From Acidimicrobiales bacterium (lineage in GTDB: Bacteria > Actinomycetota > Acidimicrobiia > Acidimicrobiales > QHCF01), in assembly GCA_039583615.1 (NCBI GenBank), contig JAVKSQ010000005.1, forward strand, positions 1,004 through 65,003: a stretch of 64,000 nucleotides of DNA, given 5' to 3'. The translations under genes were made by a program, and so were the position numbers. Under the pieces are notes generated by a model. The model was not told where the DNA came from and ran no database searches. It was given only the letters and a program-made list of their open reading frames with translations. Below are positions 18,653 through 62,517 of this stretch, piece by piece (within the stretch, counting starts at the first letter, position 1; each line of letters begins with the position of its first letter).

Positions 18653-18707
18653 GCCAAGCTCTCCGGCTGGCCCGACCAACTGCACCTGGAAGCCAGCCCT
18701 TAGGGCT

Positions 18708-19676: not shown

Positions 19677-19776
19677 CCCCTATGCTCCTTTCCTGGGGCG
19701 ACGACCCCGATCGGCGCGGGCCTGCTCTGAGGGCTCCAGCCCGGACCGAGCGGTTCGACGGCTCCATTTGCGCGCC

Positions 19777-21503: not shown

Positions 21504-21554
21504 CGAGGAAAGCCTAATGCGTCCGAGACCACGATAGTCGCCGGCCCGGGCCGT

Positions 21555-22808: not shown

Positions 22809-22858
22809 GGGGAGTGCATGCTACCCGAGCGCTTGTCCGGGCCTCGGACCGACGTCGC

Positions 22859-23386: not shown

Positions 23387-23387
23387 C

Positions 23388-24329: not shown

Positions 24330-24393
24330 GAGGGATCTGGCTGACCTAACCCGGAGCTGGGACCGGCTCGGACCAGACTGTACCATGGTATAA

Positions 24394-25143: not shown

Positions 25144-25149
25144 CATCCT

Positions 25150-26349
25150 GTGTCGTCCGGTGGTGCGTTCCGAGCCCTGGGCCAGCCGCCAAGGATGACG
25201 TCCCCCGGGATGGTCGCCGGACCCGCCGGAGGAAGCCACCCGGATGGGCGCCTGCGGGTGGGCGTCGACCGGTCGCTGCTGCGACCTGGCCGGGCCAGCG
25301 GGCACGGTCGGGTATGGGGGCAGGTCCTCGCCGGGCTGGCGGCCCATGTCCACCTCCGACCGGTCTCCACCGAAGGCCGAGCCCCGAGCTGGCGAGGCGA
25401 GAGAGGCTGGCAGGAGCCCGACATATGGCTGATCGACGGCCACCGGCCCCTGGCCAGAGACAGTGCCAAGCCCGTCGTCGCGGTTGTCTACGAGGCCGGC
25501 TGGTGCACTCCCTACCTCCGCCGCTTCCTGCATCCGGGTACTGCCCGGTACCTCGACGACAGCACCGACGCCGCCATGAGGGTGGCCGATCATGTGATCA
25601 CGCTCTCCGAGTGGAGCCGGTCACAGGTCATCGAGCGGTACGGCTTGTCGCCCCACCGGGTGCATGCCGTGCCCTTGGGGGTCGATCTCGACACGTTCAG
25701 GCCAGGGCTGGAGGGGGGCGTCGACATCGTGGCGGCCGCCTCCGCCCGCCCGGTGGACCACTATGTGCTCTTCGTGGCCACCATTCACCCGCGCAAGAAC
25801 CTGGCCGGTCTGCGCCAGGCAATGACAGCCCTTGCTCGCCGTGGCTTCTCCCAGTCTCTCGTCCTGGTCGCCGGGGCGATATCCGATTGGCGGGACTCAC
25901 CGGACCTGGAGTGGGTGGCGGAGGCCGACCTACCCGGCGCCACCGGCCACATGGTGCGAGTCCGAGAGCCCAGTGACACCTGCCTGGCGGCCCTGATGGC
26001 CGGAGCCGACGCCTTCTGCCTGCCGAGCTTCTCGGAGGGGTTCGGCCTCACCGCCTTGGAAGCGCTGGCCTGCGGGACGCCCGTGGTCGTCTCCAACCAG
26101 GGCGCGCTGCCCGAGGTGGTGGGGGGCGCCGGGTTGGTGGTCGAGCCTACGCCAGGCTCTCTGGAGAGCGCCCTGGCTCGGATCCTGAGCAGCTCTGACC
26201 TGTCAGACCGCCTGAGGAAGGCCGGGCGCGCCAGAGCGGAGGCGTTCGCCTGGCACCGGACGGTCTCCGGCTGGCTCTCGGTCATGGCCGGGGCGGCCGA
26301 GGATGGGGCCAGGTCCGAGCAACCGAGCACCACCCTGCGTGCTCGGTAG
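25150..26349 (+). CDS. Glycosyltransferase, GT4-like
   Basis: Strings LFVATIHPRKN and FCLPSFSEGFGLTALEALACGTPVVVSNQGALPEVVG (E-x7-E region) support the call. The true start is probably ATG 25195 or 25210, before RLRVGVDRS. Confidence 0.8.
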   Translation: MSSGGAFRALGQPPRMTSPGMVAGPAGGSHPDGRLRVGVDRSLLRPGRASGHGRVWGQVLAGLAAHVHLRPVSTEGRAPSWRGERGWQEPDIWLIDGHRPLARDSAKPVVAVVYEAGWCTPYLRRFLHPGTARYLDDSTDAAMRVADHVITLSEWSRSQVIERYGLSPHRVHAVPLGVDLDTFRPGLEGGVDIVAAASARPVDHYVLFVATIHPRKNLAGLRQAMTALARRGFSQSLVLVAGAISDWRDSPDLEWVAEADLPGATGHMVRVREPSDTCLAALMAGADAFCLPSFSEGFGLTALEALACGTPVVVSNQGALPEVVGGAGLVVEPTPGSLESALARILSSSDLSDRLRKAGRARAEAFAWHRTVSGWLSVMAGAAEDGARSEQPSTTLRAR

Positions 26350-26355
26350 CTGTGG

Positions 26356-27393
26356 TCAGGACCTTGTCGCCACCACTGCCAGCTCTTCGGCTCGGTCTGG
26401 GTTCTGCACGGAGCGGAGGTTCGCCACCAGCGTGGCACCCAGGTTGGCATCGGCGGGATCCCCGTTGTGGCGGGCGATGGCGGTGCTGGCCCCGAACATG
26501 GGGCCGGCATCGAAGGCCACCGGCATCCTCACCCACTGCGAGAAGCCGGCCTGGTGGAGGATCCTGGCCAGCCCACTTGCGGTAAAGAGGGTCAAGTGGC
26601 GGGGAGGCTCCAGCCCCCGCCAGTTCCTGCCATACCGTCGGTGACCGGCGGAGGCCAGGTTGGGAGTGGCGATCCACACCTTGCCGCCGGGTTTGAGGAG
26701 GCGCCAGCAGGATCGCAACAAGTCCACCGGCTGGTGGACATGCTCGATGACGTGGTTGACGGTGATGACGTCAAAGGTGCCCGGAGCGAAGCTGTCCTCG
26801 CCAAAGACCTCGTTGCGAACCGGAAGGCCGGCAGCCACGGCCAATGCCGCCGCCTTGGCATCAGGCTCGATGCCGTCCACCTGCCAACCAGCCGACCGCA
26901 TTTCCAGGAGGAACCGGCCACTGCCACAGCCGATATCGAGCAACCGCCGGGGACCCTCGGGCCGGTCCAGGTACCGTACCCACCGACTGGCCCGCCGCCG
27001 GGTGCCCGGAGCAAGGGCCAGCGCCAGCCCCCCGACCCGCCAACTGGGATTAAACTGATAGCCGTGCCTGCGCCGGAGGTAGCCGTTCCTGAGCGCTCGT
27101 CGCGAGTAGGCGATCATGGTGCTGGGCTCTGCGCAAGATACGTCGGGCGAGCAGTGAGTGAGGTAGGATCGGTAGGCGAAGGAGATGGAGTCGCGGCTGG
27201 GTCGTGGATTGAGATAAGCCGACTCGCACTGGTGGCAAAGGTAGATCTCCCAGCGGTCCGAAGAGCATTGGAACACGTGGTCGAGCAGGGCGGAGTACAA
27301 GGGTGTGCCTTGCTGGCCGCCGCAGGCGGGGCAGCATGTGAGGAGCTCTAAGTCGCCGCCCGCCCACTTGCCCGGGGTCATCGTCTCTTCCAT
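26356..27393 (-). CDS. Class I SAM-dependent methyltransferase with N-terminal Cys4 zinc-ribbon-like segment
   Basis: Strings CCPACGG...CHQCES and RLLDIGCGSGRFLLEM...FDVITVNHVIEHV...LKPGGKVWI support the call. The start is an ATG (MEETMTPG) with GAGGTG upstream. The track start at 27420 is a TTG. Confidence 0.75.
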   Translation of the reverse strand: MEETMTPGKWAGGDLELLTCCPACGGQQGTPLYSALLDHVFQCSSDRWEIYLCHQCESAYLNPRPSRDSISFAYRSYLTHCSPDVSCAEPSTMIAYSRRALRNGYLRRRHGYQFNPSWRVGGLALALAPGTRRRASRWVRYLDRPEGPRRLLDIGCGSGRFLLEMRSAGWQVDGIEPDAKAAALAVAAGLPVRNEVFGEDSFAPGTFDVITVNHVIEHVHQPVDLLRSCWRLLKPGGKVWIATPNLASAGHRRYGRNWRGLEPPRHLTLFTASGLARILHQAGFSQWVRMPVAFDAGPMFGASTAIARHNGDPADANLGATLVANLRSVQNPDRAEELAVVATRS

Positions 27394-27505
27394 GGGGTGC
27401 TCACCTCGGGACCGAACCAACGCAACACGGACGGTCAGCGTCGAGGCTAGCAGCCCTCCACAGACGGGCCTTTCTCGAAGTCAGTCAGTCCCGCACTGAT
27501 CAGGA

Positions 27506-28516
27506 ATGGAGAAAGTGGGTAGCCACTCACCGCTCGTGAGCGTGATAGTTCCCACCTATGACCGCCCAGAGTACCTGGGGCAGGCTCTGGCCAGTGTGCT
27601 GGCGCAGCGCTGCGACGATCTGGAGGTCATCGTCTCGGACGACGCTGGTCCCAACGACATTGGCTCACTGGTCGAGTCATTTGGGGACCGGCGGCTCAAG
27701 TACAGGCGCAATACCACCAACCTGGGAGTGCTGGGCAATACCGTAGCTGCACTGGGCCAGGCCGGGGGAAAATACATCGCCATTCTCAACGACGACGACC
27801 TGTGGGGCCCACTGTTCCTGGAGCGACTGGTGGCCGCCCTGGAGGATAGGGATGATCTCGTCGTCGCCTTTTGCGATCATTATATCATCGACAGTGAGGG
27901 CCGGATCGACGCCGCGGCGACGGAGCGCCGTACTCATGACTACAGCCGGGATCGCCTTAGCCCTGGAGTACACCATCCGTTTGGTGAGATCGCGCTGGTC
28001 AACAGGAGCATAGGTGCCGTCATGGGAGCGGTCTTCCGACGCCGATCCATTGACTGGGCGGCCCTCCCAGCCGAGGCCGGACCCGCCTACGACACATGGA
28101 TCTTGTATCTGGCGGCCAAGAGTGGCCTGGGCGCATGCTATGTCCCTGAGAGACTGACATATTATCGGTACCATACAGGTCAGCAGACCTTTCAGAGCGT
28201 CCTGGACTTCCACCTCGGACTGGTCTTCTGCTACCAGGCCTTCCTCGATGACCAATCGCTGTGGACGATGCATCGCCAGCTTCGAGCGCTCCTGGGTACC
28301 GCCTACGTGGACTGCGGGCTCACCCTGGTGCGGGCCGGAAGGGCCAGGGAGGCCAGAGCCAGCCTGATGCGAGGCCTGTGGCTGGGCCCCGGACCCAGGT
28401 CCGTGGTCGGGCTGCTGCTCACGCTGGGTCCCAGCTGGGCGCCTCGATGGGTGACTCGGGTCGTGCGGACGTCCAAGGGCCTGGCTGGGGCGGGAGGGGT
28501 CGCCGGCCGGGACTAG
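27506..28516 (+). CDS. Glycosyltransferase family 2
   Basis: Strings VSVIVPTYDRPEYLGQALASVLAQ, EVIVSDDAGP and AILNDDDLW support the call. Confidence 0.85.
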   Translation: MEKVGSHSPLVSVIVPTYDRPEYLGQALASVLAQRCDDLEVIVSDDAGPNDIGSLVESFGDRRLKYRRNTTNLGVLGNTVAALGQAGGKYIAILNDDDLWGPLFLERLVAALEDRDDLVVAFCDHYIIDSEGRIDAAATERRTHDYSRDRLSPGVHHPFGEIALVNRSIGAVMGAVFRRRSIDWAALPAEAGPAYDTWILYLAAKSGLGACYVPERLTYYRYHTGQQTFQSVLDFHLGLVFCYQAFLDDQSLWTMHRQLRALLGTAYVDCGLTLVRAGRAREARASLMRGLWLGPGPRSVVGLLLTLGPSWAPRWVTRVVRTSKGLAGAGGVAGRD

Positions 28517-28525
28517 GTTGTCCGG

Positions 28526-29239
28526 GTGGCCCGGGCTGATCTCACCGGCTGGCCTCGCCGACCGGGTCGCCTTCCTGCCGCCCTGCTCCGGCGGGTGCTG
28601 CCCAGCCATCCACGGTTCGGCTTCGCTTGGGTCCACCTCGAGGACGGCTCGATCACCTTCCGCGAGGAGGGCTTCGTGGCCGCGGGCTCACCGGCGTCGC
28701 TCTTGGCGCGACACAACTACGAGACTGCCTGCATCCGGCATCTGCTGAGAGACGTCGACGCCCTTCGGTCCCTGGAGGTCGGATGCGGCTACGGCCGACT
28801 GAGCCCCGTGCTGGCCGAGTTCTCCCGGGCCCACCTCGCGCTCGACATCAACGAGGCGGCCCTGGAGCAGGCTCGCACCATGTACCCCGAGCTCACCTTT
28901 CAGAGAGCCTCGGCCTCCGACCTGCCGTTTCCGAGCGACTGCTTCCAGCTGGTGACCACCTGGACGGTGGTTCAGCACATCCCGCCAGGCCAGATAGCCG
29001 CCGCATGCTCGGAGCTGATCCGGGTCCTGGTCCCCGGTGGGGTCCTGCTCACCTGCGAAGAGACCCGCCAGGCGGGGCGTCCGGCGGGTGGGCGGCGACC
29101 ACCACACACCTGGCACCGTGGCGTGGAGGACTACCAGCGCCTGTTCGAGCCCCTCAGCCTGGCCTACTCATCTTTCATCCACGAGCTCGACCGGCTGCCG
29201 GGAATGCAGTCGCCTGGACGGGTGATGCTCTGGCGCTAG
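28526..29239 (+). CDS. Class I SAM-dependent methyltransferase
   Basis: Strings SLEVGCGYGRLSPVLA, FQLVTTWTVVQHI and LVPGGVLLTCE support the call. Confidence 0.75.
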   Translation: MARADLTGWPRRPGRLPAALLRRVLPSHPRFGFAWVHLEDGSITFREEGFVAAGSPASLLARHNYETACIRHLLRDVDALRSLEVGCGYGRLSPVLAEFSRAHLALDINEAALEQARTMYPELTFQRASASDLPFPSDCFQLVTTWTVVQHIPPGQIAAACSELIRVLVPGGVLLTCEETRQAGRPAGGRRPPHTWHRGVEDYQRLFEPLSLAYSSFIHELDRLPGMQSPGRVMLWR

Positions 29240-29266
29240 CCTGGATCTGCGCTAACGGAAGGAGCC

Positions 29267-30307
29267 ATGACCGATCCCGTGGCAGCTGCGGGAGGACGCT
29301 CATCTAGTTGGGCCAACTGGAATTGGGCGACATCCAAGGCGGGTGATGCCTGCCGGTTGGCGGCCGGGATATGCAGGGGGTTGCACGGCCTTCGCGGGCG
29401 CGGGCGCGGGGGCCATCTTCTTCATGGGCTCATGCGTGAGCAGCTGGGCGGCGCAGCTGCTGGCAGCTGGGACATCCCGATGCGGAGGGGCCATGAGATG
29501 CGCTCGCCCTGGTCCACCGTCCAGAGCTGGACGGCGGCCTTCACCGGCCAGTACGACGAGGCGGAGATAGACCTCCTGCTTAGCTTCGCCGACCAGGGAA
29601 CCCTGCTGTTGGACGTGGGCGCCTCGGTCGGGTTCTGGACCGTCCCACTCGCCATGGCGGCCCGGGATAGGCAGGGCCGCGTCCTGGCCATCGAGCCTCT
29701 GTCCGCCAACGTCGGATTGCTGAGAGCCAATCTGGCGCGCAACGGTCTGGGCCATGTGGTGGACATCTGTCCGGTAGCCCTGGGCTCGGACCCGGGCGAG
29801 GCAGTGGCGGTGGTGGAGCCGGGAGGTGCTGGAAATGCGTGGGTGGACCCGCCCCTGCCCGAGGGCGGCCAGACCTGGGGGGCGGCCTGGACCGAGACCG
29901 TCCGGGTAACACCGCTGGACGCCATGGCGCTGCCGCCCTCGTGCATCGGCCTGCGGTGCAGCGTCGTCAAGCTCGACGTGGAGGGCTTGGAGATGGCGGT
30001 TCTGGAGGGTGGCGCCAACTTCATGACACGTCACCGACCCGTCCTCCTCGGTGAATTCTCTCCAGAGTGCTTCGCCCGACGGGGGGTGCCCGGCGACGCA
30101 CCCCAGCGGTGGGCCGAGAGCACGGGCTACTGCTGCCACGAGGTGGTGCACGAGCGCAACAGCCGCATCTCGGACCAGTACCGGGTCGTCCTGGTGGCTC
30201 GCCGGAGCGGAGAGGCCCGTGGTGACGGAGCCCTTCTCCTGACCCCGGCCGACCTGCTGGCCCCGGACGCCCTCCTGACCCGGGGGGACATGGCCGTCCC
30301 GCCCTGA
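29267..30307 (+). CDS. FkbM-family methyltransferase
   Basis: Strings LLDVGASVGFWTVPLA, LAIEPLSANVGLLRANL and KLDVEGLEMAVLEG support the call. AAGGAG precedes the ATG. Confidence 0.8.
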   Translation: MTDPVAAAGGRSSSWANWNWATSKAGDACRLAAGICRGLHGLRGRGRGGHLLHGLMREQLGGAAAGSWDIPMRRGHEMRSPWSTVQSWTAAFTGQYDEAEIDLLLSFADQGTLLLDVGASVGFWTVPLAMAARDRQGRVLAIEPLSANVGLLRANLARNGLGHVVDICPVALGSDPGEAVAVVEPGGAGNAWVDPPLPEGGQTWGAAWTETVRVTPLDAMALPPSCIGLRCSVVKLDVEGLEMAVLEGGANFMTRHRPVLLGEFSPECFARRGVPGDAPQRWAESTGYCCHEVVHERNSRISDQYRVVLVARRSGEARGDGALLLTPADLLAPDALLTRGDMAVPP

Positions 30308-51179: not shown

Positions 51180-53186
51180 GTGCTCATCGCGCAAGAGGAT
51201 GTGGCCAAGGTGAGGGCCGCCATCGACCTGGTCGCCTTGGTGGGTGAGCACCTGGCGCTCAAGCGCCAGGGCCGGCGATGGGTGGGGCTGTGCCCCTTCC
51301 ACGCCGAGACCACTCCGTCGTTCGGGGTCAACCCCGAGCTGGGTCTCTACCACTGCTTCGGGTGCCAGGCGTCGGGGGACGCCATCACCTTCGTGCGAGC
51401 GGTCGAGCACCTCGACTTCGTGGACGCGGTGGAGTGGCTGGCCGGGCGGGCCGGGATCAGCATCGCTCGAGAGGAACCTGGCTCCGGCCGTCGACCGGAT
51501 GGCCGGCAGCGGTCCCGGCTGCTGGAGGCTATGGAACGGGCGGTGGCCTGGTACCACGAGCGACTTCTGGCCCACCCAGATGGTGCCCCGGCTCGGGACT
51601 ACCTGGCGTCCAGGGGATATGACAAGGAGGTGGCTGGCGCCTTCCGGCTGGGGTGGGCGCCTCACGACTGGGACGCCCTGGCCCGAGCCCTCAAGCTTCC
51701 CGAGGAGGTCCTCACCGCAGCGGGCCTCGGCTTCGTCAACCGCGCCGGTCGGGTGCAGGATGCTTTTCGGGGGCGGGTGATCTTCCCCATCTTCGATCCG
51801 GGGGGACGGGCGGTGGCCCTGGGGGGCCGGGTGTTGCCCGGGGCGGGGCAAGTCGGTGGCCGAGAGGCCGGGCCCAAGTACAAGAACTCCCCCGAGACTG
51901 CCATCTACTCCAAGCGCCGGACGCTCTACGGGCTCAACTGGGCCAAGGCGAACGTGGTGGAGACCGGTGAGGTGATCGTGTGCGAGGGCTATACCGACGT
52001 GATCGCCTTCTTCGCCGCCGGAGCGCCCCGGGCAGTGGCGACATGCGGCACGGCCCTGGGCGAGGACCACCTCCGGGTGCTCAGGAGCTTCGCCCAGCGA
52101 GTGGTCCTGGCCTACGACGCCGACCGCGCCGGCCAGGCGGCCGCCGAACGGGTCTACGAGTGGGAGCGTCACCACGACCTGGACATCGCCGTGGCTGGCC
52201 TCCCGGGCGGTTCCGACCCGGCCGAGCTCGGTCAGCGAGATCCGGGGGCGCTGCTGGCCGCGGTCGAGCAGGCCCGGCCCTATCTGGCCTTTCGGGTGGA
52301 GCGGCTCCTCGGCGATGCTCACCTGGGCACCGCCGAGGGCCGAGCCAAGGCGGCCGAGGCGGCGCTGTCAGCCGTGGCCCAGCATCCCAACGAGCTGGTG
52401 CGCGACCAGTACGTGATGGACATCGCCGACCGCTGCCGGGTGCCAGCCGAGCGGTTGAGGGCCATGATGGCCAGCGGTCGTCCCAGGGCGGCGGCCCAGC
52501 ATCGGCTGGGTCACTCGGCTCGGCGTCCGGGGACGGCCGACGGCCGGCCCGGTCACCGAGGTGAAGGGGCCGACCGGGACGGGGCTGGACCTGGTCAGGC
52601 CGGCGCCGGGGGGTCGGATGGCCCCGGTGGCCCCGACGGCCGGGGACGCCGCCGAGGTGGCGTGGCCTCCGCAGACAACCAGGCCGGCTGGGACGGCCAA
52701 GAGCGGGAGCACGGCCGGTCCGCCGCCCCGGTCCCCACCGTGAGGTTGGCGCCAGGGCCGGGGACCGAAGCCCTGCGACTGGCTGTCCACCGGCCCCACG
52801 AGGTCGCCGACCGGCTGGAGGAGTTCCTGTTTGCGGACGGTCTGCAGCGCCGGGCCTTCGGCGCTCTGGCCAGCTCGGCCACCCTGCACGAGGCCATCGC
52901 CAATGCCGACCCGGAGGTGGCTGCGCTCCTCGGGCGCCTGGCCCTGGAGGACACCGAGGCGGACGCCGGCGACGTGGTCAACTTGCTGTTGGCCGACGCC
53001 CTTCGCCGGGCCCTGGAGGACCTGGAGGCCGATGCCCGGCGCTCGTACGAGAGCTTTGCCGAGCTGGCCGGGGACGCCACCTGGCTGAGGCAGGCGCTGG
53101 TCGAGCTCCGGGAGGCGCCTGCCGGATCAGTTGCGCCGCCTCGGTTGGTAGCCTGGTTGCGAGGTCGGGCGAAGGAGCAGTCATGA
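51180..53186 (+). CDS. dnaG: DNA primase
   Basis: Contains the zinc finger [25 protein letters not shown] and TOPRIM strings [12 protein letters not shown] and [13 protein letters not shown]. Confidence 0.92.
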
Positions 53187-54658
53187 GCAACGCCGGGACC
53201 GTGCTCGCCACGGCAGGGTTCCCCGAGGATGGGTTCGATCGCTTGTTCGAGATCGCCCGCCAGCGTGGCGTTCTCACCCAGGAGGACCTCATGGCCGTGC
53301 TGGAGACGGTGGAGCTGAGTGCCGATCTGATCGACGCCGTGGTCGACCGGGTGAAGGCAGCGGGGATCCACTACGCAGAGCCGGCCGACGATCTCGCCGG
53401 GGTGTCCGCCGCCCCCGTCGCCGGCCGGACCGACCATCTCCCTCCGGTAGGCGCCGCCCTTGAGGCTGACCCGGCGGCCGGCCTTACCGGTCCCAGCGAG
53501 GCGGTGGCGACCCGGGCTACGCCGGGTCGAGACCAGGTGACCAGCCTTGGCCATCCCGGCGACAACGCGGTGACCGCGCTCCCCCCCTCGGGCGAGGCGC
53601 CGGCCGATGCCCGTCCATTGCCGGCCAGGAGACGACGGGGACCGGCCAGGACTCGACCCGCAGCCACCGGCCGGGTCCGCCGGGACAGCGGGCGCGACAG
53701 CCGCGGTGACGAGGAGGCTCTGGGCCCGGCGGCCGACCCGGTGCACACCTATCTCCGGGAGATCGGGAAGGTCCCCCTGCTGCGCACCGAGGAGGAGGTG
53801 GCGCTGGCCCGGCGAGTGGCCGAGGGCATTGCCGCCGCTGAGAGACTGCTCGCCTCGGAGGACCACGGCGACCGCGGCCCTGACTTCGAAGAGGAGCTCC
53901 TGCGGGCCGAGCGGCTGGTGACCAGCGGCATCGAGGCCAAGCAGTGCCTCATCGAAGCCAACCTGCGCCTGGTGGTATCGATCGCCAAGCACTACCGAGG
54001 GCGAGGGCTGGCCTTTCTGGACCTCATCCAGGAGGGCAATCTCGGCTTGATGCGGGCGGTCGAGAAGTTCGACTACACCCGGGGCTTCAAGTTCTCGACC
54101 TACGCCACCTGGTGGATCCGCCAGGCGCTCACTCGTGCCCTGGCCGACCAGGCCCGGACCATCCGCATCCCGGTCCACATGGTCGAGCTGATCAACCGCA
54201 TGCTCAACGTTCAACGCCAAGGGGTGCAGGAGCTCGGTCGGGAGCCGACGGCCGAGGAGGTGGCCGGCTGGTTGGAGATGCCGGTCGAGCGGGTGCGAGA
54301 GCTGCAGCACCTCAGCCAGGAGACGATGTCCCTGGAGCAGCCGATGGGGGAGGAGGAGGGCTTCAGCCTCTCCGATCTGATCGAGGACCAAGAGGCGGTG
54401 GCACCGGCCGATGCGGCGGCCCGGGCCCTGCTCAACGAGGCGGTGAAGAAGGCGCTGGCCCAGCTGGACGACCGGGAGGCCGAGGTGGTGCGGCTGCGCT
54501 TCGGGCTCGACGACGGCCAGATGCGCACCCTCGAGGAGGTTGGGCGGGTGTTCGGCGTAACCCGCGAGAGGGTGCGTCAGATCGAGACGAAGACGCTGAA
54601 CAAGCTACGCCACCCGATGCACAGCCAGACGCTGCGGGAGTACCTGGACGAGGCTTGA
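53183..54658 (+). CDS. rpoD: Primary-type RNA polymerase sigma factor (group 1, RpoD/SigA-like)
   Basis: Strings [64 protein letters not shown] and RERVRQIE support the call. The ATGA start overlaps the dnaG stop. Confidence 0.93.
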
Positions 54659-54677
54659 GGTCTTACGGGGTAGTGCC

Positions 54678-54902
54678 TTACAGGGGCCAGAGATTGCTGA
54701 TCTTTCCGCCGACCAAGCCCTGAGCCTTCTCGGTGCCCGAGCCGACCAGGTCCTTGGCCTTCTCGGCCACCTGGCTCACCACCGGTGACTTGAGGGCAGC
54801 TTCGGCCAAGCTGGTGACGTTGGCCTTGATCTGCTCAGGGCTCATGGTGCCGAGGTAGTAGCCAGCGGCCAGCCCGGTCAGCAAGCTATAGCGCATTTTC
54901 AT
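54678..54902 (-). CDS. Small hypothetical protein (74 aa, N-terminal hydrophobic helix)
   Basis: Track ORF MKMRYSLLTGLAAGYYLG... with an AGAGG-like sequence upstream. Convergent with rpoD. Confidence 0.45.
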   Translation of the reverse strand: MKMRYSLLTGLAAGYYLGTMSPEQIKANVTSLAEAALKSPVVSQVAEKAKDLVGSGTEKAQGLVGGKISNLWPL

Positions 54903-54973
54903 GGGGTCACTGTACCTCTTTCCGGCGGTCCGTGCTGGATTGGGCGGAAGGCGCTGGTAGGGTGCCGGGCGTT

Positions 54974-55046
54974 TCCGGGGTAGCTCAATCGGCAGAGCAC
55001 GCGGCTGTTAACCGCGGTGTTGAGAGTTCGAGTCTCTCCCCCGGAG
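54974..55046 (+). tRNA. tRNA-Asn (anticodon GTT)
   Basis: Hand fold: TCCGGGG TA GCTC AATCGGCA GAGC A CGCGG CTGTTAA CCGCG GTGTT GAGAG TTCGAGT CTCTC CCCCGGA G. Confidence 0.9.
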
Positions 55047-55063
55047 CACCCGCCGCAGTCCCC

Positions 55064-55136
55064 GGGCCCGTAGCTCAGTGGTCAGAGCATGGGACTCATA
55101 ATCCCCTGGTCGTGGGTTCGATCCCCACCGGGCCCA
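55064..55136 (+). tRNA. tRNA with CAT anticodon (elongator Met; Ile2 cannot be excluded)
   Basis: Hand fold: GGGCCCG TA GCTC AGTGGTCA GAGC A TGGGA CTCATAA TCCCC TGGTC GTGGG TTCGATC CCCAC CGGGCCC A. The G1:C72 pair argues against an initiator. Confidence 0.85.
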
Positions 55137-55194
55137 CTGATGTCTCTCCTTTTCAGCCGCCTTGTTCCGTCTGTTCAGCCCCTCTGATGAGGTC

Positions 55195-55230
55195 AACCCA
55201 ACGGTCGACCCAACAGCTAACCCAACAACG
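55195..55230. repeat. Three 12-bp-spaced direct repeats (A/G)ACCCAAC between tRNA-Met and the integrase remnant (arm-site-like)
   Basis: aacccaac at 55195-55202, gacccaac at 55207-55214 and aacccaac at 55219-55226, read directly. Confidence 0.7.
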
Positions 55231-55248
55231 GGGAGGGGGCCATTGCCG

Positions 55249-55550
55249 GGGAGTGTGCGGCAGCGGCGCCCGGGAGTGTGGGAGCTGAGGGTCTACGCCG
55301 GGAAGAGGCCAGGCGGGTACGCCATCGCCACACCAGCTTCGTGGGCTCCAAGCGGCCTGCTGGCACCGAGCTGGCCCGCCTGGTCGCCGAGCAGGAGCGG
55401 GCGCCAGTGGTGGCCGACGAGGAGAGCCGGGGTGGGAACCGGTCACCACCGTCAACGACGCCATCGGCGGCTGGCGGGACAACGGATGGCAGGACCTCAG
55501 CCCCACCACCACCCGGCGCTACCAGAGCCTGTGGACGGTCCACGCGCCTG
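55249..55550 (+). pseudogene. Tyrosine-integrase N-terminal remnant, split over three frames and lacking the catalytic domain
   Basis: Frame a reads GSVRQRRPGVWELRVYAGK. Frame b reads RHTSFVGSKRPAGTELARLVAEQE. Frame c reads TVNDAIGGWRDNGWQDLSPTTTRRYQSLWTVHA. These strings match the usual N-terminal arm-binding and SAM-like region order of actinobacterial phage-type integrases. Nothing integrase-like follows about 55550. Confidence 0.6.
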
Positions 55551-55652
55551 GGCCCCAGTCATGTCGGGCTGACGACGGGGCGCGAACAAGAAAGCCGCCG
55601 CGTAGGTGTGCGTAAGCGCCACCTCGGAGACCGTCCACATAGAACCCTACTT

Positions 55653-55702
55653 ACAAGAACAGAACGGTCATCCTTGCATTTTGTTCTTGTCAACGCTAGC
55701 CT
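55653..55702 (+). promoter_or_regulatory. Candidate promoter (TTGCAT-17 nt-TAGCCT) overlapped by a perfect 9-bp inverted repeat upstream of the cassette
   Basis: ACAAGAACA (55653-55661) and TGTTCTTGT (55682-55690) are exact reverse complements with a 20-nt spacer. TTGCAT lies at 55674-55679 and TAGCCT at 55697-55702, about 22 nt before the first cassette ATG (55725). Confidence 0.3.
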
Positions 55703-55724
55703 CACCCGTGAACAGGGAGCGAGC

Positions 55725-55958
55725 ATGGCAGAGCAGGGGAAGCCCAGAGGTCGCACCGTCTTCTCCGTTCGACTGGATGGCTTGGAACTGCCGTCGGAGA
55801 TCACCCTTCGGATCGCCGTCGCCGTGCGCCGCGCCATTCTTGCCGAGATGGCTGAAGTCGATCTTGTGTCCGGCTTTCGCGTCCAGGATTTGGCAGCCCT
55901 GGAGAGCGGTGGCGGGACGCAGGGAATTGCGATCGTCGCCGACGTTGCGGAGGACTAG
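55725..55958 (+). CDS. Small ORF (77 aa), candidate precursor peptide or accessory; no Cys, C-terminal ...LESGGGTQGIAIVADVAED
   Basis: This is the last 77 codons of track ORF 55278..55958. The ATG is preceded by AGGGAG. The stop is followed after 2 nt by the next GTG. Confidence 0.5.
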   Translation: MAEQGKPRGRTVFSVRLDGLELPSEITLRIAVAVRRAILAEMAEVDLVSGFRVQDLAALESGGGTQGIAIVADVAED

Positions 55959-55960
55959 CT

Positions 55961-56377
55961 GTGCGCTCGATGCAAGTCGCCAGGGCTCACGAATGCCTCT
56001 GCCCGAGCGGACGTTGCCGGGAGGGGGCCAAGTTGCTGGGCGTAGTTGGGACTGATGGCTGTGTCAGCTTCCTGACGCCAGCCATTCCAATAAGCGAGGT
56101 CTTTGTTGACAAGGCATTGGCGATCGGGCGCACCGGTGCCCGATTCCGTTTCGCTGAGCCATGCGCGCAGAGTGACTGTGAGCACTGGGCTGGGGAGCGC
56201 TGCCAGTTGATCGATCGTTTCATCGTAGACGGACCGTGCGACGATGTGGACTCCTCGAGAACGAAGCTCCCGGTGTGTGGCATCCGGGTCTCTTGCCGAT
56301 GGTATGGACAGCGGGGCCGGCGTGCCTGCGCGGTGTGTCCCATGGTCATTCGTGAGCCTTTAGCGGCGATTTCATAA
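55961..56377 (+). CDS. Cysteine-rich protein (138 aa, 12 Cys), function unknown
   Basis: Track ORF. Cys strings are ECLCPSGRC, DGC, EPCAQSDCEHW, ERC, GPC, PVCGIRVSC and RACAVCP. It is tightly coupled to the upstream ORF. The overlapping minus ORF is low complexity and contrary to the operon direction. Confidence 0.5.
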   Translation: MRSMQVARAHECLCPSGRCREGAKLLGVVGTDGCVSFLTPAIPISEVFVDKALAIGRTGARFRFAEPCAQSDCEHWAGERCQLIDRFIVDGPCDDVDSSRTKLPVCGIRVSCRWYGQRGRRACAVCPMVIREPLAAIS

Positions 56378-56408
56378 CGAAGATTTCTCAACCAGAAGGA
56401 GGAGTCGC

Positions 56409-56657
56409 ATGGAAGACGAACCGAGAGAGGATGAGGATACCGTCGTCCCGATCAGGGAGCGGCATGTCGTCATGACGCCTACCGGCGTTACCTTTGTTCT
56501 CAATGAGGAAGACCAGCGTCAGGCTCGTCGCTGCCTTGAGCGGACCGGCAACATCACCATCAATTTCGGGGAAGTGACTGTCTCAAGTCTCAGTGAGATC
56601 AGGCGGCTCGAGCGGATCGCTGACGGGCCCGATGGCGGTGTCGGTCCGATCGACTGA
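56409..56657 (+). CDS. Small ORF (82 aa), candidate RiPP precursor; acidic N-terminus, C-terminal ...RIADGPDGGVGPID
   Basis: A strong SD (AAGGAGG at 56396-56402) lies 6 nt before the ATG. The stop is followed after 2 nt by the GTG start of the DUF692 gene. Confidence 0.6.
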   Translation: MEDEPREDEDTVVPIRERHVVMTPTGVTFVLNEEDQRQARRCLERTGNITINFGEVTVSSLSEIRRLERIADGPDGGVGPID

Positions 56658-56659
56658 CA

Positions 56660-57541
56660 GTGCCAACGCCCAGGTTGACGCCGGCCATCGGTCTCGGCTC
56701 GGATGCCGTTGCCGTGGGCATGGCATACAGCAGAGCCGCTGCAGGCCTTGTATGCGACTTGCTCGATGATCTCGACTACGTCGAGTATCCCTATGAGTTG
56801 CTGATGTGCAACGCCGCCGCGGCCGAGATGGCTTGCAACTCGACCGCCGTGCTGCACTGCGCAAGTCTGTCATTGGCGTCGGGTGACCCACCCGACGCGG
56901 CGGTCCTCCACACCGTCGCCGACTGGGCCGATCGGCTCGACTCTCCCTGGGTGGGTGAGCATTTCGCATTTGTGGCCGCCCGGAACCCTGGCCCGTGGGC
57001 AGGGGACGACCCGGGGCGGGAAGACAGAGTCTTCAACATCGGCTTTGCGATCAGCCCGCCGTTGAACGCCGACACGGTCGAGAGCGTTGCAGAGGCGTTG
57101 GCGGCCGTCGTGACGGTTGTGCGACGACCATTCGTTATCGAGAACTCCCCGGTCTATTTCCCAATGCCGGGTTCCGGGATGGGGCAGGGAGAAGCGTTCA
57201 CGGCACTAACTCGCCTCAGCGATGTTGGCGTGCTGATGGACTTGGCCCATCTGCTGATTACCTGCGACACGATGGGATTGGACCCGTTGGCTGAGCTCCG
57301 CCGCTTTCCGCTCGATCGCGTGGTCGAGGTGCATCTCTCTGGGGTTTCGCGGGATTCCGGTGTGCTGTGGGACGATCATGCGTCCGCCCCCGTAGCAGCG
57401 GAGTACGAGCTCTTGAACGTCGTACTCCATGATGCGCCAGTTCGCGCGATCACGCATGAGTACAACTGGGCGCCTAGGTTTCCCGCGGACGTCGCCCGCC
57501 GGGAGATTGACCGCACCCACCAGATACTGGGCTCCAGGTAG
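56660..57541 (+). CDS. DUF692-family protein (MbnB/TglH-like multinuclear non-heme iron oxidative enzyme, MNIO)
   Basis: Family-order strings are present: AIGLGSD, VLHCASLSLAS, WVGEHFAF, PFVIENSPVYF, GVLMDLAHLL, VVEVHLSG, LWDDHAS and ITHEYNW. These provide His/Glu/Asp ligand candidates in the order I recall for MbnB-type TIM-barrel enzymes. Confidence 0.8.
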   Translation: MPTPRLTPAIGLGSDAVAVGMAYSRAAAGLVCDLLDDLDYVEYPYELLMCNAAAAEMACNSTAVLHCASLSLASGDPPDAAVLHTVADWADRLDSPWVGEHFAFVAARNPGPWAGDDPGREDRVFNIGFAISPPLNADTVESVAEALAAVVTVVRRPFVIENSPVYFPMPGSGMGQGEAFTALTRLSDVGVLMDLAHLLITCDTMGLDPLAELRRFPLDRVVEVHLSGVSRDSGVLWDDHASAPVAAEYELLNVVLHDAPVRAITHEYNWAPRFPADVARREIDRTHQILGSR

Positions 57542-57569
57542 TGACCGAGGGCAAGGCGGCCCCGAGGCC

Positions 57570-59513
57570 ATGACGGTCGAGACTCGCGCCGTCAACGCCA
57601 TGATCGCGCGAGGTCTCGTCGAACCCTCATTCCTTGTCGCTCTCGATCAGGATAGAGGCCGGGTACTCGACGACATGGGGATCTCCAGCGGGACGCGCCA
57701 GGATTTCATCGGACTTGATTGCCATCGCCTGGCGCTGATGGCCACGTTCATATGTAAGGTGAAGAACAATGACCTCTGGAGCACCCTGCCCCTAACCCGG
57801 GCGCTGCTACAGGAATACGGCAGCGAGCTAGAGGTGTTCGGGGTCTTCAGCCGACGGAGTCCGCAGCGTGGTGGCTCGCTTCACGAGCGCGTCAGCGCGT
57901 TGGTCGAGTGCCTTCTGTCCTACGCGTCCGCTCGCCGCGGCCAGGTCCCAGGCCTGGAGGATGTCGTCCGCCACGAGTGGCTTGTAGCCCGGTTCTCGAA
58001 CGGGTGGGGACTAGAGGCATCGTCGTTGGACACGGTCGATGACGACCCTCCCGAGGCGCGGCCAGCGAACCTCTGGCGACCAAGGATTCGAGGGACGGTC
58101 TTGGTGCAGAGCTACGAGCACGACCCGCTGCGTGTGCAGCTTGCATGGCAAGCACGGGAGTGGACCAGATCGATGGCTCCGCCGACCGAGCCAACATTTT
58201 TGTGCTACTCGTTGGGCGACACGCCGGGAAGCCGGCTCCGAGTCTTTAGGATGGATCCAGCCGTGGCTCTGATTGTCGGCTGGGTGGATGGTCAGCGGTC
58301 TCCGATCGAAATTGCCAATCTCATGGGTGCAGGCACGGACGCGGCGCTCGTTGTCCGAGTCCTTCTCGCCGCAGCTCAGGAGGGGATCATTCGTTCCCCG
58401 AGCGCTGAGGTCTTGGCCGCGCTTCAACGACATCACGGAGACGTCGGTGGCCTGCCGGCTAAAAGCTCGAAGGAGCACGAACCACTCTTCGGCGGTAGCC
58501 GTCAGCGGGGGCCGGATCAAGTGCTCGATCTTGTGAGCGGCTACGCCGCTGGCCGCCTCCTATACACGCTGCAGCGAATCGGAGCCCTTGGGCGCTTCGG
58601 CACTCCGAGTAGGGCTGCTTCTGTCGCGGTGGAGCTCGGCGTTGATCGAGCGTGGCTCGAGGCCGTGGTGCAGTTTCTCGCGGTGACTGGAGGCGTCTTC
58701 CGCCAGCTCGACGGCGGCCGTTACGTCGTCGAGTTGGACGAACGCGAACGACAGCGGCTGAACTTCGAGTTGACCAAGTTCGTCGGGGCCTACGGAGCGT
58801 GCCTCGATGCGGTTGGGCCGGCTCCTGACGTCGTCGACGCTGACGCATTTGCTGATGCGTTCAGCGCGTCGGTTCACAGCCGTGCTGATCGCCCCTACCA
58901 TGGCTCGTTGATTCCGGGACTGCTCCGCGAGTTTGGCGTGGCATCGGGACTCTTGGATCTTGGCTGTGGGACCGGTGACCTTCTCATCGATCTAGCGGTC
59001 AGCGACGAGGGCTTCCACGGGATCGGAATCGATGAGAACCGCGCGATGTGTGCTCGTGCGGTGGCGGAGGCCGGACGAGCAGCTGTCCTGCGACGAGTGC
59101 GCATATTTAGTGGCGATGCGTTCGATGTCCTGGCAAATCTTCCGCTAGATGCGATGTGCCCGATGACGGCGGCGCACTCGGCGAGCTTCTTCAACGCCCT
59201 GTTTGCGAACGGGCATCGCCGAGCGGTTGACATCCTCACGCTGCTCAGCGACCGGCTCGGCCGCCGCCTTTTGTTCATCGACGACTACTACGGGCAGCTG
59301 GGTGTGGACTTCGATGCTCATGTTGGTCTGACATGGTCGATGATGCAGGACCTCGTCCAAGTCTGTTCCGGGCAGGGCGTGCCACCGAGGGAGCGGGTCG
59401 ATTGGGAGGCGGTGTACCAACGTGCGGGGTGCCGGCTTCTCCGCTCGTATGAGGGCACGCTCGGCGGGTTCCCGCGCTTTATCCACGTGGTCCAACTCGC
59501 AGCCGCCTCGTAG
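57570..59513 (+). CDS. Three-module fusion: MNIO-partner-like N-terminal region, PqqD-like recognition element, winged-helix plus class I SAM O-methyltransferase
   Basis: The start is ATG 57570 (MTVETRAV...). Mid-region: RVFRMDPAVALIVGWVDGQRSPIEIANLMGAGTDAALVVRVLLAAAQEGII (PqqD/RRE-like). Then LVSGYAAGRLLYTLQRIGALGRFGTPSRAASVAVELGVD (OMT dimerisation/wHTH-like). Then LLDLGCGTGDLLIDLA and IGIDENRAM (SAM motifs I and II). Confidence 0.7.
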   Translation: MTVETRAVNAMIARGLVEPSFLVALDQDRGRVLDDMGISSGTRQDFIGLDCHRLALMATFICKVKNNDLWSTLPLTRALLQEYGSELEVFGVFSRRSPQRGGSLHERVSALVECLLSYASARRGQVPGLEDVVRHEWLVARFSNGWGLEASSLDTVDDDPPEARPANLWRPRIRGTVLVQSYEHDPLRVQLAWQAREWTRSMAPPTEPTFLCYSLGDTPGSRLRVFRMDPAVALIVGWVDGQRSPIEIANLMGAGTDAALVVRVLLAAAQEGIIRSPSAEVLAALQRHHGDVGGLPAKSSKEHEPLFGGSRQRGPDQVLDLVSGYAAGRLLYTLQRIGALGRFGTPSRAASVAVELGVDRAWLEAVVQFLAVTGGVFRQLDGGRYVVELDERERQRLNFELTKFVGAYGACLDAVGPAPDVVDADAFADAFSASVHSRADRPYHGSLIPGLLREFGVASGLLDLGCGTGDLLIDLAVSDEGFHGIGIDENRAMCARAVAEAGRAAVLRRVRIFSGDAFDVLANLPLDAMCPMTAAHSASFFNALFANGHRRAVDILTLLSDRLGRRLLFIDDYYGQLGVDFDAHVGLTWSMMQDLVQVCSGQGVPPRERVDWEAVYQRAGCRLLRSYEGTLGGFPRFIHVVQLAAAS

Positions 59514-59516
59514 CCG

Positions 59517-60188
59517 ATGGCCACAGCGACCATTAGGCCCGTGGCAGCGACCTGGGACGGTGTTTTGCCGCCCAGCGAGCTCAGTCAGCTGTTGGAGTAC
59601 GCGGTGTATCGCGAGAGCGAGTTCGTCGACACCCAGGTCCTCGGTGCCGATGATGGCGCGGTCTCGGTCGTGGATCGGAACATGAGACGGAACACGCACT
59701 TACGGGGCACCGCTAATGTGCCATGTGCTGTCATGCGGCGCCTCAAGGAGTATATCCCAGTGTTGGCCCGGTCCATTGGTCAGGATGATGACAGATGTTC
59801 AGACGGTGTGTACGAGGCAGAGATTACCGCCACGGGACATGGTGGCTTCTTCACCGCTCACGTCGACGATGCGAATGCTCGTGTACGGGATCGCTCGATC
59901 AGCTTCGTTCTCTTCTTCAGCGAATGCCCCAGACCATTTCGAGGTGGCCATCTCTGCATCGAACGCGACTGGAGGGACGACGATCAACTGTTTATCTTCG
60001 ATGCTGTGCGGGATGGCCGACTGAGCAGGTCTGAGGTAGCCGAGATCATAGAGCCCAAAGCCAACCGGCTCGTCGTCTTTGCGAGTCATCGGCTCCATGA
60101 GGTTCGGCCGGTGTGGACCAGGTCGAGCCAGTTCCGGTGCTCGAGATTCACGGTGACCGGCTTCCTCCGATCCTCCGATCGGCGTTAG
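59517..60188 (+). CDS. 2-oxoglutarate/Fe(II)-dependent oxygenase (prolyl-4-hydroxylase-like)
   Basis: FFTAHVDD provides the HxD, ISFVLFFS follows, and NRLVVFASHRLHEVRPV provides the distal His and Arg. It lies 3 nt after the preceding stop. Confidence 0.75.
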   Translation: MATATIRPVAATWDGVLPPSELSQLLEYAVYRESEFVDTQVLGADDGAVSVVDRNMRRNTHLRGTANVPCAVMRRLKEYIPVLARSIGQDDDRCSDGVYEAEITATGHGGFFTAHVDDANARVRDRSISFVLFFSECPRPFRGGHLCIERDWRDDDQLFIFDAVRDGRLSRSEVAEIIEPKANRLVVFASHRLHEVRPVWTRSSQFRCSRFTVTGFLRSSDRR

Positions 60189-60220
60189 AAACACCTACTT
60201 TCCTGGCTCTATGCGTCTGA

Positions 60221-61240
60221 GTGGGGAGACCAGGTGCGGATCCCGGAGCGGGGAAGTTCGTCTTGCCAAGTAACGCCGCCGACGTGGAGGGCACCGTCAT
60301 GGCTGGCGGTATCGGGACGCCCGGCTCCGAGACCAGCCGCTTGTGGATGCGAAGGAGAGGATCGGCCTTCCTGGCGCGCTGGCCCAGCGTCTCGTTCTGG
60401 ACCCGGCGGCGAACCTTGTTCCTGGAGCTCTCGAAGGAGGTCCGCCAAAGCGTCCGGGCCGAGGTGGCCAAGGCCAGGGAAGGGCTGAGCGAGGGCCAGG
60501 GTCACCAGGTCGTCGTCGACCCGCTGCTCCGCTACCGGATCACCGTGGAGATCCTGACCGAGTCGGGCCAACTCCGGGTGATGGACGAGCGGCTGGAGGC
60601 GCTCAAGGCCGACGGGACCCGGACGCCAGCCGACGCCCGTTTATCTGGCAGGAGGTGGCCGAGAGCTGGATCCGCCCTTCGTCGGGAGGAAGAGGGCCAT
60701 ACCCTCTACGAGGAGATCGGCCAGGACCGCCCGATCGCCTCCAAGCGGCTCTACCCTCCCCACTACCCCCACATCTCCGCCTTGGGCGAGGAGCTGGCCC
60801 GCTGGCGGACCTACTACCTGGAGCCCTCGGCCATGCGCAGGGAGACGCCGCTGCGGGAGGTGACCGTCCTCCCACCCGACGGCAGCGACTGGAGCCTCTG
60901 TCGGTGGTGGGCTACGAGGAGCCCGAGAACGGTGTTCACCCCGACCGTCTCTCGATGGTGGGCCGGGTCCTGTCGAGCGCGGCCGAGCGCGGCCGAGCGC
61001 GGCACGACGTAGTACCTGGTGAACACCCACTCGCCGCTGCTGTCGGAGTATTTCCTGGGGGCGGGCGCTGCGGCCCGGATCGTCCGCTGCTCCCGCCACG
61101 GCCGGGAGACCCTGTTCGAGACCCTCGACGACCTCAACCTCCTCAGTGCCAGTACCATCGCCGACGGGCTGGCCGACGACTTCTCCCCACCGCTGGCCTC
61201 GACATTCGCCCAGCGAATGGTGCGGGGAGACTTCCGCTGA
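60221..61240 (+). pseudogene. ABC-type (AAA_15/21-like) ATPase remnants spread over three frames
   Basis: Fragments are RYRITVEILTESGQLRVMDERLEAL, ...LARWRTYYLEPSAMRRETPL, VVGYEEPENGVHPDRL (Walker B/D-loop-like, about 60907-60950) and NTHSPLLSEYF (H-loop-like, about 61019-61050). They sit in different frames. No intact Walker A was seen. Confidence 0.5.
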
Positions 61241-61938: not shown

Positions 61939-62517
61939 ATGAATCGCAGGGAGCTCGTCAGCGCTGTCGCCACCCACACTGGTGTCGATTCTCGTGACGT
62001 GGACAAGGTGTTGCGAGGTGCCACCGAAGTCATCGAGGCAGTGGCAGCCAAGGGCGAGCAGGTGACGATCAGCGGCTTCGCCAAGTTCGCTCGGGTGGAT
62101 CGGCCGGCCCGTATGGCTCGCAACCCAGGGACGGGGGAGCCGGTCAAGGTGAGAGCGTCCAAGAAGGCAAGGATCACCCCCCTCAAGGGCTTCAAGGACG
62201 CGGTGATGAGGCCCATGGCCGCCCCCAAGCTGGCCAAGGGAGTGTGGCCGCCCGTGCCAGCCAAGGCTTCGCCAGGTGCAGGCTCAGCTCGCCGGGCCGG
62301 GCCGGCCCGGGCGGTGACATCCAGGGCTCCAGCCAGGTCGTCGCCCGCCAGCAAGGCTGGTGCGAGCAAGGCGGCCGCCACCAAGCCCGCCCCGCCAGGA
62401 CCGCCAGCCAAGCGGGCTGGAGCCGCCAAGGCAGCCCCAGCGGCCAAGAAGCCCGCCAGCGGCCCTCGCTATGTCAGTCGCCTGCCTTCCCGCCAAGGCG
62501 GGCCGTCTCCTTCTTGA
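61939..62517 (+). CDS. hup: HU-family nucleoid protein with long Ala/Lys/Pro-rich C-terminal tail (actinobacterial HupB/Hlp type)
   Basis: MNRRELVSAVATHTGV...VTISGFAKFARVDRPARMARNPGTGEPVKV is followed by a PAKKA-like tail. AGGAGA precedes the ATG. Confidence 0.88.
   Translation: MNRRELVSAVATHTGVDSRDVDKVLRGATEVIEAVAAKGEQVTISGFAKFARVDRPARMARNPGTGEPVKVRASKKARITPLKGFKDAVMRPMAAPKLAKGVWPPVPAKASPGAGSARRAGPARAVTSRAPARSSPASKAGASKAAATKPAPPGPPAKRAGAAKAAPAAKKPASGPRYVSRLPSRQGGPSPS

Follow-up and report, generated by a model that had tools for sequence, protein, structure and literature searches.

The closest described counterpart of the locus treated here is the aminopyruvatide (apy) gene cluster of Burkholderia thailandensis E264, which comprises ApyA, ApyH, ApyI, ApyD, ApyS and ApyO and makes a peptide of ribosomal origin that is modified after translation (RiPP) (Nguyen et al. 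2024, PMC11117315). ApyA precursors are defined by a CBX2-3G motif in their middle part and by Asp as the last residue. ApyH, an oxidative enzyme that depends on multinuclear non-haem iron (MNIO), and ApyI, described as containing a RiPP recognition element (RRE), are both required for the removal of 30 Da that yields aminopyruvic acid, and ApyS, which needs this ApyHI-made keto acid, C-methylates the beta-carbon to (S)-3-amino-2-oxobutanoic acid, as shown by nuclear magnetic resonance (NMR). ApyI and ApyS are separate proteins in this characterised system. An ApyH-type MNIO is found in 100% of the apy clusters, the B12-radical-S-adenosylmethionine (SAM) enzyme ApyD in 97%, ApyS in 93% and the cytochrome P450 ApyO in 74%, and ApyO goes with aromatic residues at the precursor positions -2/-4 (PMC11117315). 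Here we describe a locus in a 64,000-nucleotide stretch of DNA from an Acidimicrobiales bacterium (contig JAVKSQ010000005.1; this whole stretch is referred to as the window), in which a single open reading frame (ORF) covers both an ApyI-type and an ApyS-type protein.

We regard it as quite probable that this ORF encodes a natural ApyI-ApyS fusion inside a variant aminopyruvatide-type RiPP gene cluster. As judged from its gene content, the locus probably belongs to the described apy class, in a variant form. Both hallmarks can be read directly from the precursor sequence, i.e. C-L-ERT-G as the CBX2-3G motif and the C-terminal Asp. A preliminary description of the DNA did not recognise this class. 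It did find the 647-residue ORF, and the three motifs that it quoted are all present (residues 129-142, 224-274 and 461-475). In its interpretation, a DUF2063-type helical region, a PqqD-like leader-binding element and an O-methyltransferase were joined in a three-part fusion, but the protein is in fact composed of two parts, as the helical region and the RRE together are one ordinary partner protein of the ApyI/TglI type.

For the N-terminal half, the NCBIfam model NF050149 (RiPP maturation protein ApyI) aligns to residues 6-270 over model positions 4-254 of 260 (E 1.7e-21, 76.7 bits). A separate AlphaFold2 model of this half (predicted local distance difference test, pLDDT, 87.3; predicted template modelling score, pTM, 0.82) shows the helical domain followed by the RRE, and a Foldseek search with the N-terminal 295 residues gave TglI as the top match (E 2.8e-6, query-normalised template modelling score, TMq, 0.52, 284 columns). 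The only PDB chains below E 1e-3 are 8hi7_A and 8hci_A, both TglI, and PDB 3dee (NGO1945) is not among the Foldseek matches; in the TglHI structure, TglH is a separate DUF692 chain of 304 residues. The proposed DUF2063-type N-terminus thus holds as far as the role of an MNIO partner and its fold are concerned, but the helices do not extend over some 200 residues, and a Pfam DUF2063 (PF09836) match at E <= 1 was found neither in the fusion protein nor in any of 15 relatives. That this signature is missing is in line with the literature, in which ApyI and TglI are classed as 'PME-type 2', a type of partner that resembles DUF2063 in its fold but not in its signature (PMC12452194). The motif LEDVVRHEWLVARF (residues 129-142) holds H135-E136, which are invariant in the alignment of the ApyI-like family, as are R14, T76, Y213 and G241. 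The RRE domain consists of three strands (residues 176-184, 206-215 and 223-228) and three subsequent helices (230-237, 245-251 and 258-270) in the AlphaFold2 model. It includes the motif RVFRMDPAV...QEGII (residues 224-274), and a profile of stand-alone ApyI-like proteins, compared with PDB sequences, weakly matches PqqD chains at residues 224-262 (E 0.004, 0.04 and 0.09), which is where the preliminary description had placed its PqqD-like element. Pfam PqqD does not match the fusion protein itself and matches one of the 15 relatives (E 0.0049), and one ApyI homologue is labelled RREFam006 PqqD_RRE in a published RODEO table (PMC11117315). The profile annotation that had been proposed as a check gave the NCBIfam families ApyI and ApyS together with a weak PqqD signal, and nothing for DUF2063. 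As an aside, residues 3-52 (57576-57725), which form the first two helices, gave a marginal match of the ApyI-like family profile to the nitrile-hydratase-alpha-like chain 6lk7_A (E 0.002) and a far weaker one to the NHLP leader peptide chimera 8tb1 (E 1.4).

The C-terminal roughly 300 residues had been described as having a SAM motif and a winged-helix segment in the style of O-methyltransferases, and Pfam, AlphaFold2 and Foldseek bear this out: the part is a class I SAM methyltransferase with such a winged-helix subdomain. The NCBIfam model NF050150 (RiPP biosynthesis methyltransferase ApyS) covers residues 318-643 with model positions 5-323 of 323 (E 2e-57, 194.8 bits), and Pfam gives only generic class I methyltransferase signals in the fusion protein, around residues 458-526 (Methyltransf_25, _4, _31 and others). 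SAM motif I, LLDLGCGTG, is formed by residues 461-469, at the beginning of the longer motif LLDLGCGTGDLLIDL (461-475). In the Foldseek search with this half, MppJ (4kib, target-normalised score, TMt, 0.75), MrsA and SgvM score best, with chains of MppJ and MrsA on ranks 1-17 (TMt 0.70-0.76), and O-methyltransferases of the same fold rank lower. When the family profile was compared with PDB sequences, the first three proteins were again MppJ (5.9e-20), SgvM (6.5e-16) and MrsA (1.2e-10). The Pfam O-methyltransferase family Methyltransf_2 has no match in the fusion protein, and the O-methyltransferase dimerisation domain PF08100 is matched by one of 15 scanned relatives (E 1.8e-4). By homology and modelled fold, the domain is most likely a C-methyltransferase that acts on an alpha-keto acid. 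The methyl 'capping' by an O-methyltransferase, as originally proposed, is unlikely because the domain is homologous to ApyS and closest to the C-methyltransferases MppJ, SgvM and MrsA.

The two halves are connected by a linker, and the AlphaFold2 model of the full-length protein, which was built on 47 relatives, consists of two well-folded parts with this linker, which is disordered, in between (mean pLDDT 89.5; domain boundaries in Table 1). The ORF begins with an ATG, and a longer reading from 57429 would overlap the upstream gene; the start at 57570 is preferred because the homologues begin at this Met in the alignment and because an identical, NCBI-derived protein of 647 residues exists in the protein collection searched. 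With full-length homologues at E = 1e-164 to 1e-99, the conservation of the ORF is far beyond chance.

How common is this fusion? HMMER, run exhaustively against 1.84 billion representative proteins (E <= 1e-3), gave 469 relatives, and the best 150 of them were inspected. Six of these 150 are fused, namely the window protein, P0002, P0003, P0004 and P0005, which share 38-48% identity with it, and P0104 with 27% identity, and the NCBIfam signatures of ApyI and ApyS are both present in all five other fusions. The remaining matches among the best 150 are stand-alone ApyS-like proteins of about 330 residues or stand-alone ApyI-like proteins of about 275-290 residues. In a joint alignment, the stand-alone ApyI-like proteins stop, and the stand-alone ApyS-like proteins start, exactly at the variable linker. 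At the DNA level, one uninterrupted fusion ORF is seen in five independent assemblies from different samples (the window and the contigs L001, L007, L008 and L009). Judged by this recurrence, the fusion is genuine, and the concern of the preliminary description that the reading frame might join two genes artificially did not materialise. The fused architecture is rare: two genome scans of the GTDB species representatives met no fused form and only split clusters. A word-indexed protein search limited to 8000 candidates had only P0002 and the window protein among the matches listed, both with the full protein and with an alignment as query, and none with the N-terminal half alone.

When sequences of the methyltransferase domain were arranged in a neighbour-joining tree (without bootstrap), the window-type fusions fell into one clade and P0104 fell elsewhere, which suggests two independent fusion events. 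In two further contigs, L011 (2673-4589) and L019 (2101-3479), apyI and apyS are adjacent and unfused, and apyD is lacking; in L011, both genes share one frame, with a stop codon and 24 nt between them. These arrangements look like an intermediate state towards fusion, and we infer that the fusion arose in a cluster where apyI and apyS were no longer kept apart by apyD. The fusion linker holds no detectable remnant of apyD, and the direction of change may have been either a loss of apyD or its later insertion. By eye, L011 also carries a gene for a SPASM-type radical SAM protein downstream on the opposite strand.

The genes around the fusion agree with the apy class and at the same time define a sub-type of it. 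The precursor scores 39.7 bits with the NCBIfam model NF050152 (broader_ApyA), it has homologues that end with [IV]D in L001, L008, L009, L002 and L004, and the segment VVMTPTGVTFVL is a candidate leader strand that would pair with the RRE sheet. The MNIO is best matched by far by NF050151 (ApyH; E 6.7e-88, 294.5 bits), followed by BufB with 80.8 bits. All His, Glu, Asp and Asn residues that do not vary among 11 ApyH-like proteins are conserved in this MNIO, and it also matches TglH (chain 8hci_D) among the PDB sequences; a version with 273 residues in the protein collection, sourced from NCBI, implies a start at 56720. The 2-oxoglutarate (2OG)-Fe(II) oxygenase encoded after the fusion has intact and conserved HxD...H...R motifs. 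Neither an ApyD homologue (tblastn, E <= 0.01) nor a second ApyI-like gene is found anywhere in the window, and its six-frame translations contain no P450 haem-binding motif. All fused loci with enough flanking DNA (the window, L001, L007, L008 and the fragment L018) have the order ApyA-ApyH-(ApyI~ApyS)-2OG oxygenase with the oxygenase gene directly 3' of the fusion, and none of them contains a B12-radical-SAM gene. The split loci (L002-L006 and L015), in contrast, carry an ApyD-like B12-radical-SAM gene directly 5' of apyS and no such oxygenase. The canonical gene order is A-H-I-D-S; H-I-D-S is seen in L002 (Streptomyces smaragdinus), L004 and L006, with a precursor in L002 and L004, and L003, L005 and L015 contain H, D and S without an ApyI match between H and D (tblastn). 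The order in the split loci matches the H-I-D of the B. thailandensis reference cluster (PMC11117315). On the basis of these gene orders, the 2OG oxygenase is a signature of the fused cluster sub-type.

Table 1. Coordinates of the fusion protein, its parts and the neighbouring features in the window
Feature	Position	Strand	Remarks
Fusion protein of ApyI-type MNIO partner and ApyS-type methyltransferase	57570..59513	+	647 aa; NCBIfam ApyI 6-270, ApyS 318-643
Helical domain of the partner, TglI-like, DUF2063-like by fold	residues 1-144 = 57570..58001	+	AlphaFold2 helices 2-144
RRE-type winged-helix domain	residues 176-275 = 58095..58394	+	AlphaFold2 topology
Variable linker between the two former proteins	residues 276-316 = 58395..58517	+	pLDDT < 50 at 292-313; length differs among fusions
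ApyS-type SAM methyltransferase, winged-helix subdomain and Rossmann domain	residues 317-647 = 58518..59513	+	NF050150
ApyA-like precursor peptide, 82 aa	56409..56657	+	CLERTG motif, ends ...GPDGGVGPID, C-terminal Asp
ApyH-like MNIO (DUF692)	56660..57541	+	maximal ORF 293 aa; PF05114 E 1.6e-28
2OG-Fe(II) oxygenase, 223 aa	59517..60188	+	PF13640 E 1.6e-14; starts 3 nt after the fusion stop codon
Cys-rich ORF, 138 aa, 12 Cys	55961..56377	+	upstream of the precursor; cluster membership uncertain
Small ORF, 76 aa, ends ...ADVAED	55728..55958	+	translationally adjacent to the Cys-rich ORF
tRNA-Asn and tRNA-Met	54974..55137	+	ARAGORN, Rfam; upstream edge of the low-GC segment

Mechanistically, the RRE would bind the conserved leader of the precursor, and the helical domain would dock onto the ApyH-like MNIO in the manner of TglI and TglH. 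Next, this enzyme would oxidise and decarboxylate the C-terminal Asp of the precursor to aminopyruvic acid, a beta-amino-alpha-keto acid. With the peptide still on the same chain, the tethered methyltransferase domain would C-methylate the enolisable beta-carbon, which would result in a C-terminal 3-amino-2-oxobutanoate, and the downstream 2OG-Fe(II) oxygenase may add a further oxidation of unspecified kind. This presumed chemistry is assigned by homology to the B. thailandensis system, and the tethering may bring a kinetic benefit.

Several observations weigh against the view that an ApyI-ApyS fusion carries out aminopyruvatide-type chemistry here. The four NCBIfam scores are all below the curated equivalog cut-offs (ApyH 294.5 bits versus 400, ApyI 76.7 versus 200, ApyS 194.8 versus 400, and broader_ApyA 39.7 versus 40), and the system is thus a divergent relative whose chemistry could differ; the MNIO homologue of S. 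smaragdinus reaches 444.6 bits and lies above the ApyH cut-off. In B. thailandensis, ApyHI is active only after the P450 cross-link has been made (PMC11117315), and the window has neither a P450 nor an aromatic residue at the precursor positions -2/-4. In addition, the catalytic analogy to SgvM and MppJ is incomplete, as the first metal-binding (Zn/Fe) His is an Asn and the second one is not conserved: SgvM binds Zn via H244 and H296 (PMC10502145), and MppJ H243, which corresponds to the site of SgvM H244, aligns with high posterior probability with the family-invariant N542, while the second-site His (MppJ H295) aligns with lower confidence with the variable C599, a position without a conserved His in the ApyS-like family. 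As far as the alignment can tell, ApyS-type enzymes may activate the keto acid in another way than MppJ and SgvM. Finally, the pTM of 0.58 for the full-length AlphaFold2 model means that the relative placement of the two halves is not predicted.

Which other explanations have to be considered? Since most relatives encode ApyI-like and ApyS-like proteins separately, and since in L011 a single base error in the in-frame genes could mimic a fusion, one might suspect that assembly or annotation artificially joined adjacent apyI and apyS genes. An artefact can be excluded because the same single ORF recurs in contigs of other samples, uninterrupted in all five assemblies at just 35-48% identity; moreover, linker length and sequence differ in each fusion, P0004, P0005 and P0104 are further fused representatives, and the window-type fusions form one clade in the tree, so that this explanation has practically no chance of being correct. 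Another question is whether the methyltransferase domain might rather be an O-methyltransferase that esterifies either the newly formed carboxylate at the C-terminus or an enol oxygen. Its fold is indeed common to many small-molecule O-methyltransferases such as MmcR, MfnG and NcsB1, and the Asn at the first metal site of the keto-acid C-methyltransferases, as well as the score of this clade under the ApyS equivalog cut-off, would be compatible with a different reaction. However, ApyS, MppJ, SgvM and MrsA outrank all O-methyltransferases in sequence and structure, the C-methylation by ApyS has been seen by NMR (PMC11117315), and the lack of a Methyltransf_2 match points in the same direction, which makes O-methylation unlikely.

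It could also be argued that the N-terminal half is a leader-binding module that serves the methyltransferase only, and that the MNIO either needs no partner or has one that is encoded elsewhere. A tailoring enzyme is often found fused to the RRE that serves it (PMC11117315), and some MNIOs are partner-free, with MovX listed without a partner and ChrI reported as dispensable (PMC12452194). However, the alignment of the N-terminal half extends over the entire ApyI profile and takes in the helical domain besides the RRE, its match to TglI spans 284 columns, no other ApyI-like gene exists in the 64 kb, and ApyH activity is abolished without ApyI in the characterised system (PMC11117315). We therefore consider such a restricted role quite improbable. 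The last alternative, a cluster remnant in decay that lies on a degraded genomic island and yields no product, draws on the low-GC segment with its two adjoining tRNA genes, on apparently broken genes (55162-55572 and 60221-61012) and on the fact that no protease or exporter gene is nearby. It is very improbable in view of the intactness of all four core ORFs with preserved catalytic motifs, and in view of the gene order that is kept in L001, L007, L008 and L009 at 45-76% protein identity, which argues for selection on the whole gene set.

Returning to the surroundings of the ApyI-ApyS fusion, two small ORFs precede the precursor gene. The Cys-rich ORF is conserved and syntenic only in L001 (61% identity) and absent from L008, and neither protein families nor PDB sequences nor PADLOC gave a match for it; its size and its number of Cys are similar to those of the putative MNIO substrates termed 'adjamnio-I' (PMC12452194), of which it may be a member. 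The neighbouring 76-residue ORF is likewise conserved in L001 only (62% identity over 48 residues; both ORFs have their counterparts at L001 5880-6480), absent from L008 and without a match among families, PDB sequences or defence systems. It was considered as a second precursor and rejected, as its L001 homologue does not end with Asp and there is no ApyA signal. For the accessory ORFs, neither PADLOC nor Rfam nor a comparison with PDB sequences was informative. The cluster segment (window 54000-61000) has a GC content of 0.625, compared with 0.705 in the flanks, and the GC content of the cluster is also below that of the flanks in L001, L008 and L009. Inside this segment, we noted an integrase-like N-terminal remnant at 55162-55572 (by eye, without a Pfam match) and an ATPase fragment at 60221-61012 (weak HEC-01A match); a directly repeated copy of the 3' end of the tRNA, which would delimit the segment, was not found. 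Genes for CHAT-domain (caspase-like protease) proteins occur near the fused-type clusters of L001 (10865-11629, minus strand) and L008 (1677-4439, minus strand) and not in the window, and these proteins may be candidate leader peptidases or a coincidence. Elsewhere in the window, there is a gene for an HU-family protein whose long tail is rich in Lys, Ala and Pro (61939-62517, plus strand), a gene that by eye encodes a principal sigma factor extended by a long stretch at its N-terminus (53183-54658, plus strand), and a second stretch of lower GC content at 16000-30000 (0.65-0.69 versus about 0.71-0.74). The HU-family protein, the sigma factor and a GC content of about 70% together suggest a host from the Actinomycetota.

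An ApyI-ApyS fusion has not been reported in the searchable literature. In the RODEO tables of PMC11117315, no protein equals any other known fusion in length, and the entries with 647 residues shown there are ApyD; a survey of MNIO clusters in Microbial Genomics (PMC12452194) names an MNIO|nitroreductase fusion, and the word 'methyltransferase' does not occur in it. What is new here is the rare but recurrent fused architecture, the cluster sub-type in which a 2OG oxygenase takes the place of the B12-radical-SAM enzyme and the P450, and a precursor that implies a linear product. RiPP pathways commonly contain RREs that are fused to tailoring enzymes. The finding is incremental and not conceptually new, and the locus is a variant of a known pathway and not a new kind of system. 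If it holds true, however, the MNIO partner and the follow-up methyltransferase in one chain would provide a ready-made stoichiometric ApyH·(ApyI~ApyS) assembly, suited to structural and kinetic studies of the transfer of a reactive beta-amino-alpha-keto acid from an MNIO to the following enzyme, and ApyHI-type chemistry could then run without the P450 cross-link that is required in the Burkholderia system. A branch of the apy class that depends on a 2OG oxygenase, with unexplored chemistry, is likewise indicated by the locus, and beta-amino-alpha-keto acid termini are candidate protease-inhibitor warheads (PMC11117315). More tentatively, and with more doubt than confidence on our side, the fused loci may represent a distinct and undescribed sub-class of aminopyruvatide-like RiPPs, i.e. 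linear peptides whose C-terminal Asp would be converted by the MNIO to a beta-amino-alpha-keto acid, with a partner tethered to the C-methyltransferase so that oxidation and methylation would take place in one leader-bound assembly, and with a dedicated 2OG-Fe(II) oxygenase that would stand in for the tailoring by the B12-radical-SAM enzyme and the P450 and would introduce new chemistry.

In comparison with the B. thailandensis system, the window has the precursor with CBX2-3G motif and C-terminal Asp, the ApyI-type RRE partner, the ApyS-type methyltransferase and the A-H-I start of the cluster in common, and its MNIO is ApyH-like, although it scores below the ApyH cut-off. It differs in that ApyI and ApyS are one polypeptide, that ApyD and ApyO are absent, and that a 2OG-Fe(II) oxygenase follows the fusion. 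Moreover, the precursor ends with GVGPID and lacks the Tyr/Trp pair, and therefore no biaryl macrocycle is expected; judged by its core residues, it implies a linear rather than a biaryl-bridged product. The alpha-keto-acid beta-C-methyltransferases MppJ (4kib), SgvM (8ftr/8fts) and MrsA (8r4z) have the same winged-helix and Rossmann architecture as the methyltransferase domain and the same chemistry as has been shown for ApyS, but they act on free keto acids as stand-alone homodimers, unlike the tethered domain of the fusion protein. With TglI, the N-terminal half shares the helical-plus-RRE layout and the assignment to 'PME-type 2', at a sequence identity of only about 16%, and TglI is a stand-alone protein whose cognate enzyme TglH acts on a C-terminal Cys in the TglHI-dependent pearlin (3-thiaglutamate) pathway, in place of the Asp of apy systems. 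The DUF2063-RRE 'PME-type 1' partners of the bufferin and oxazolin MNIOs, such as NGO1945, have the same role as MNIO partners, and both types of partners possess a related two-domain fold (PMC12452194).

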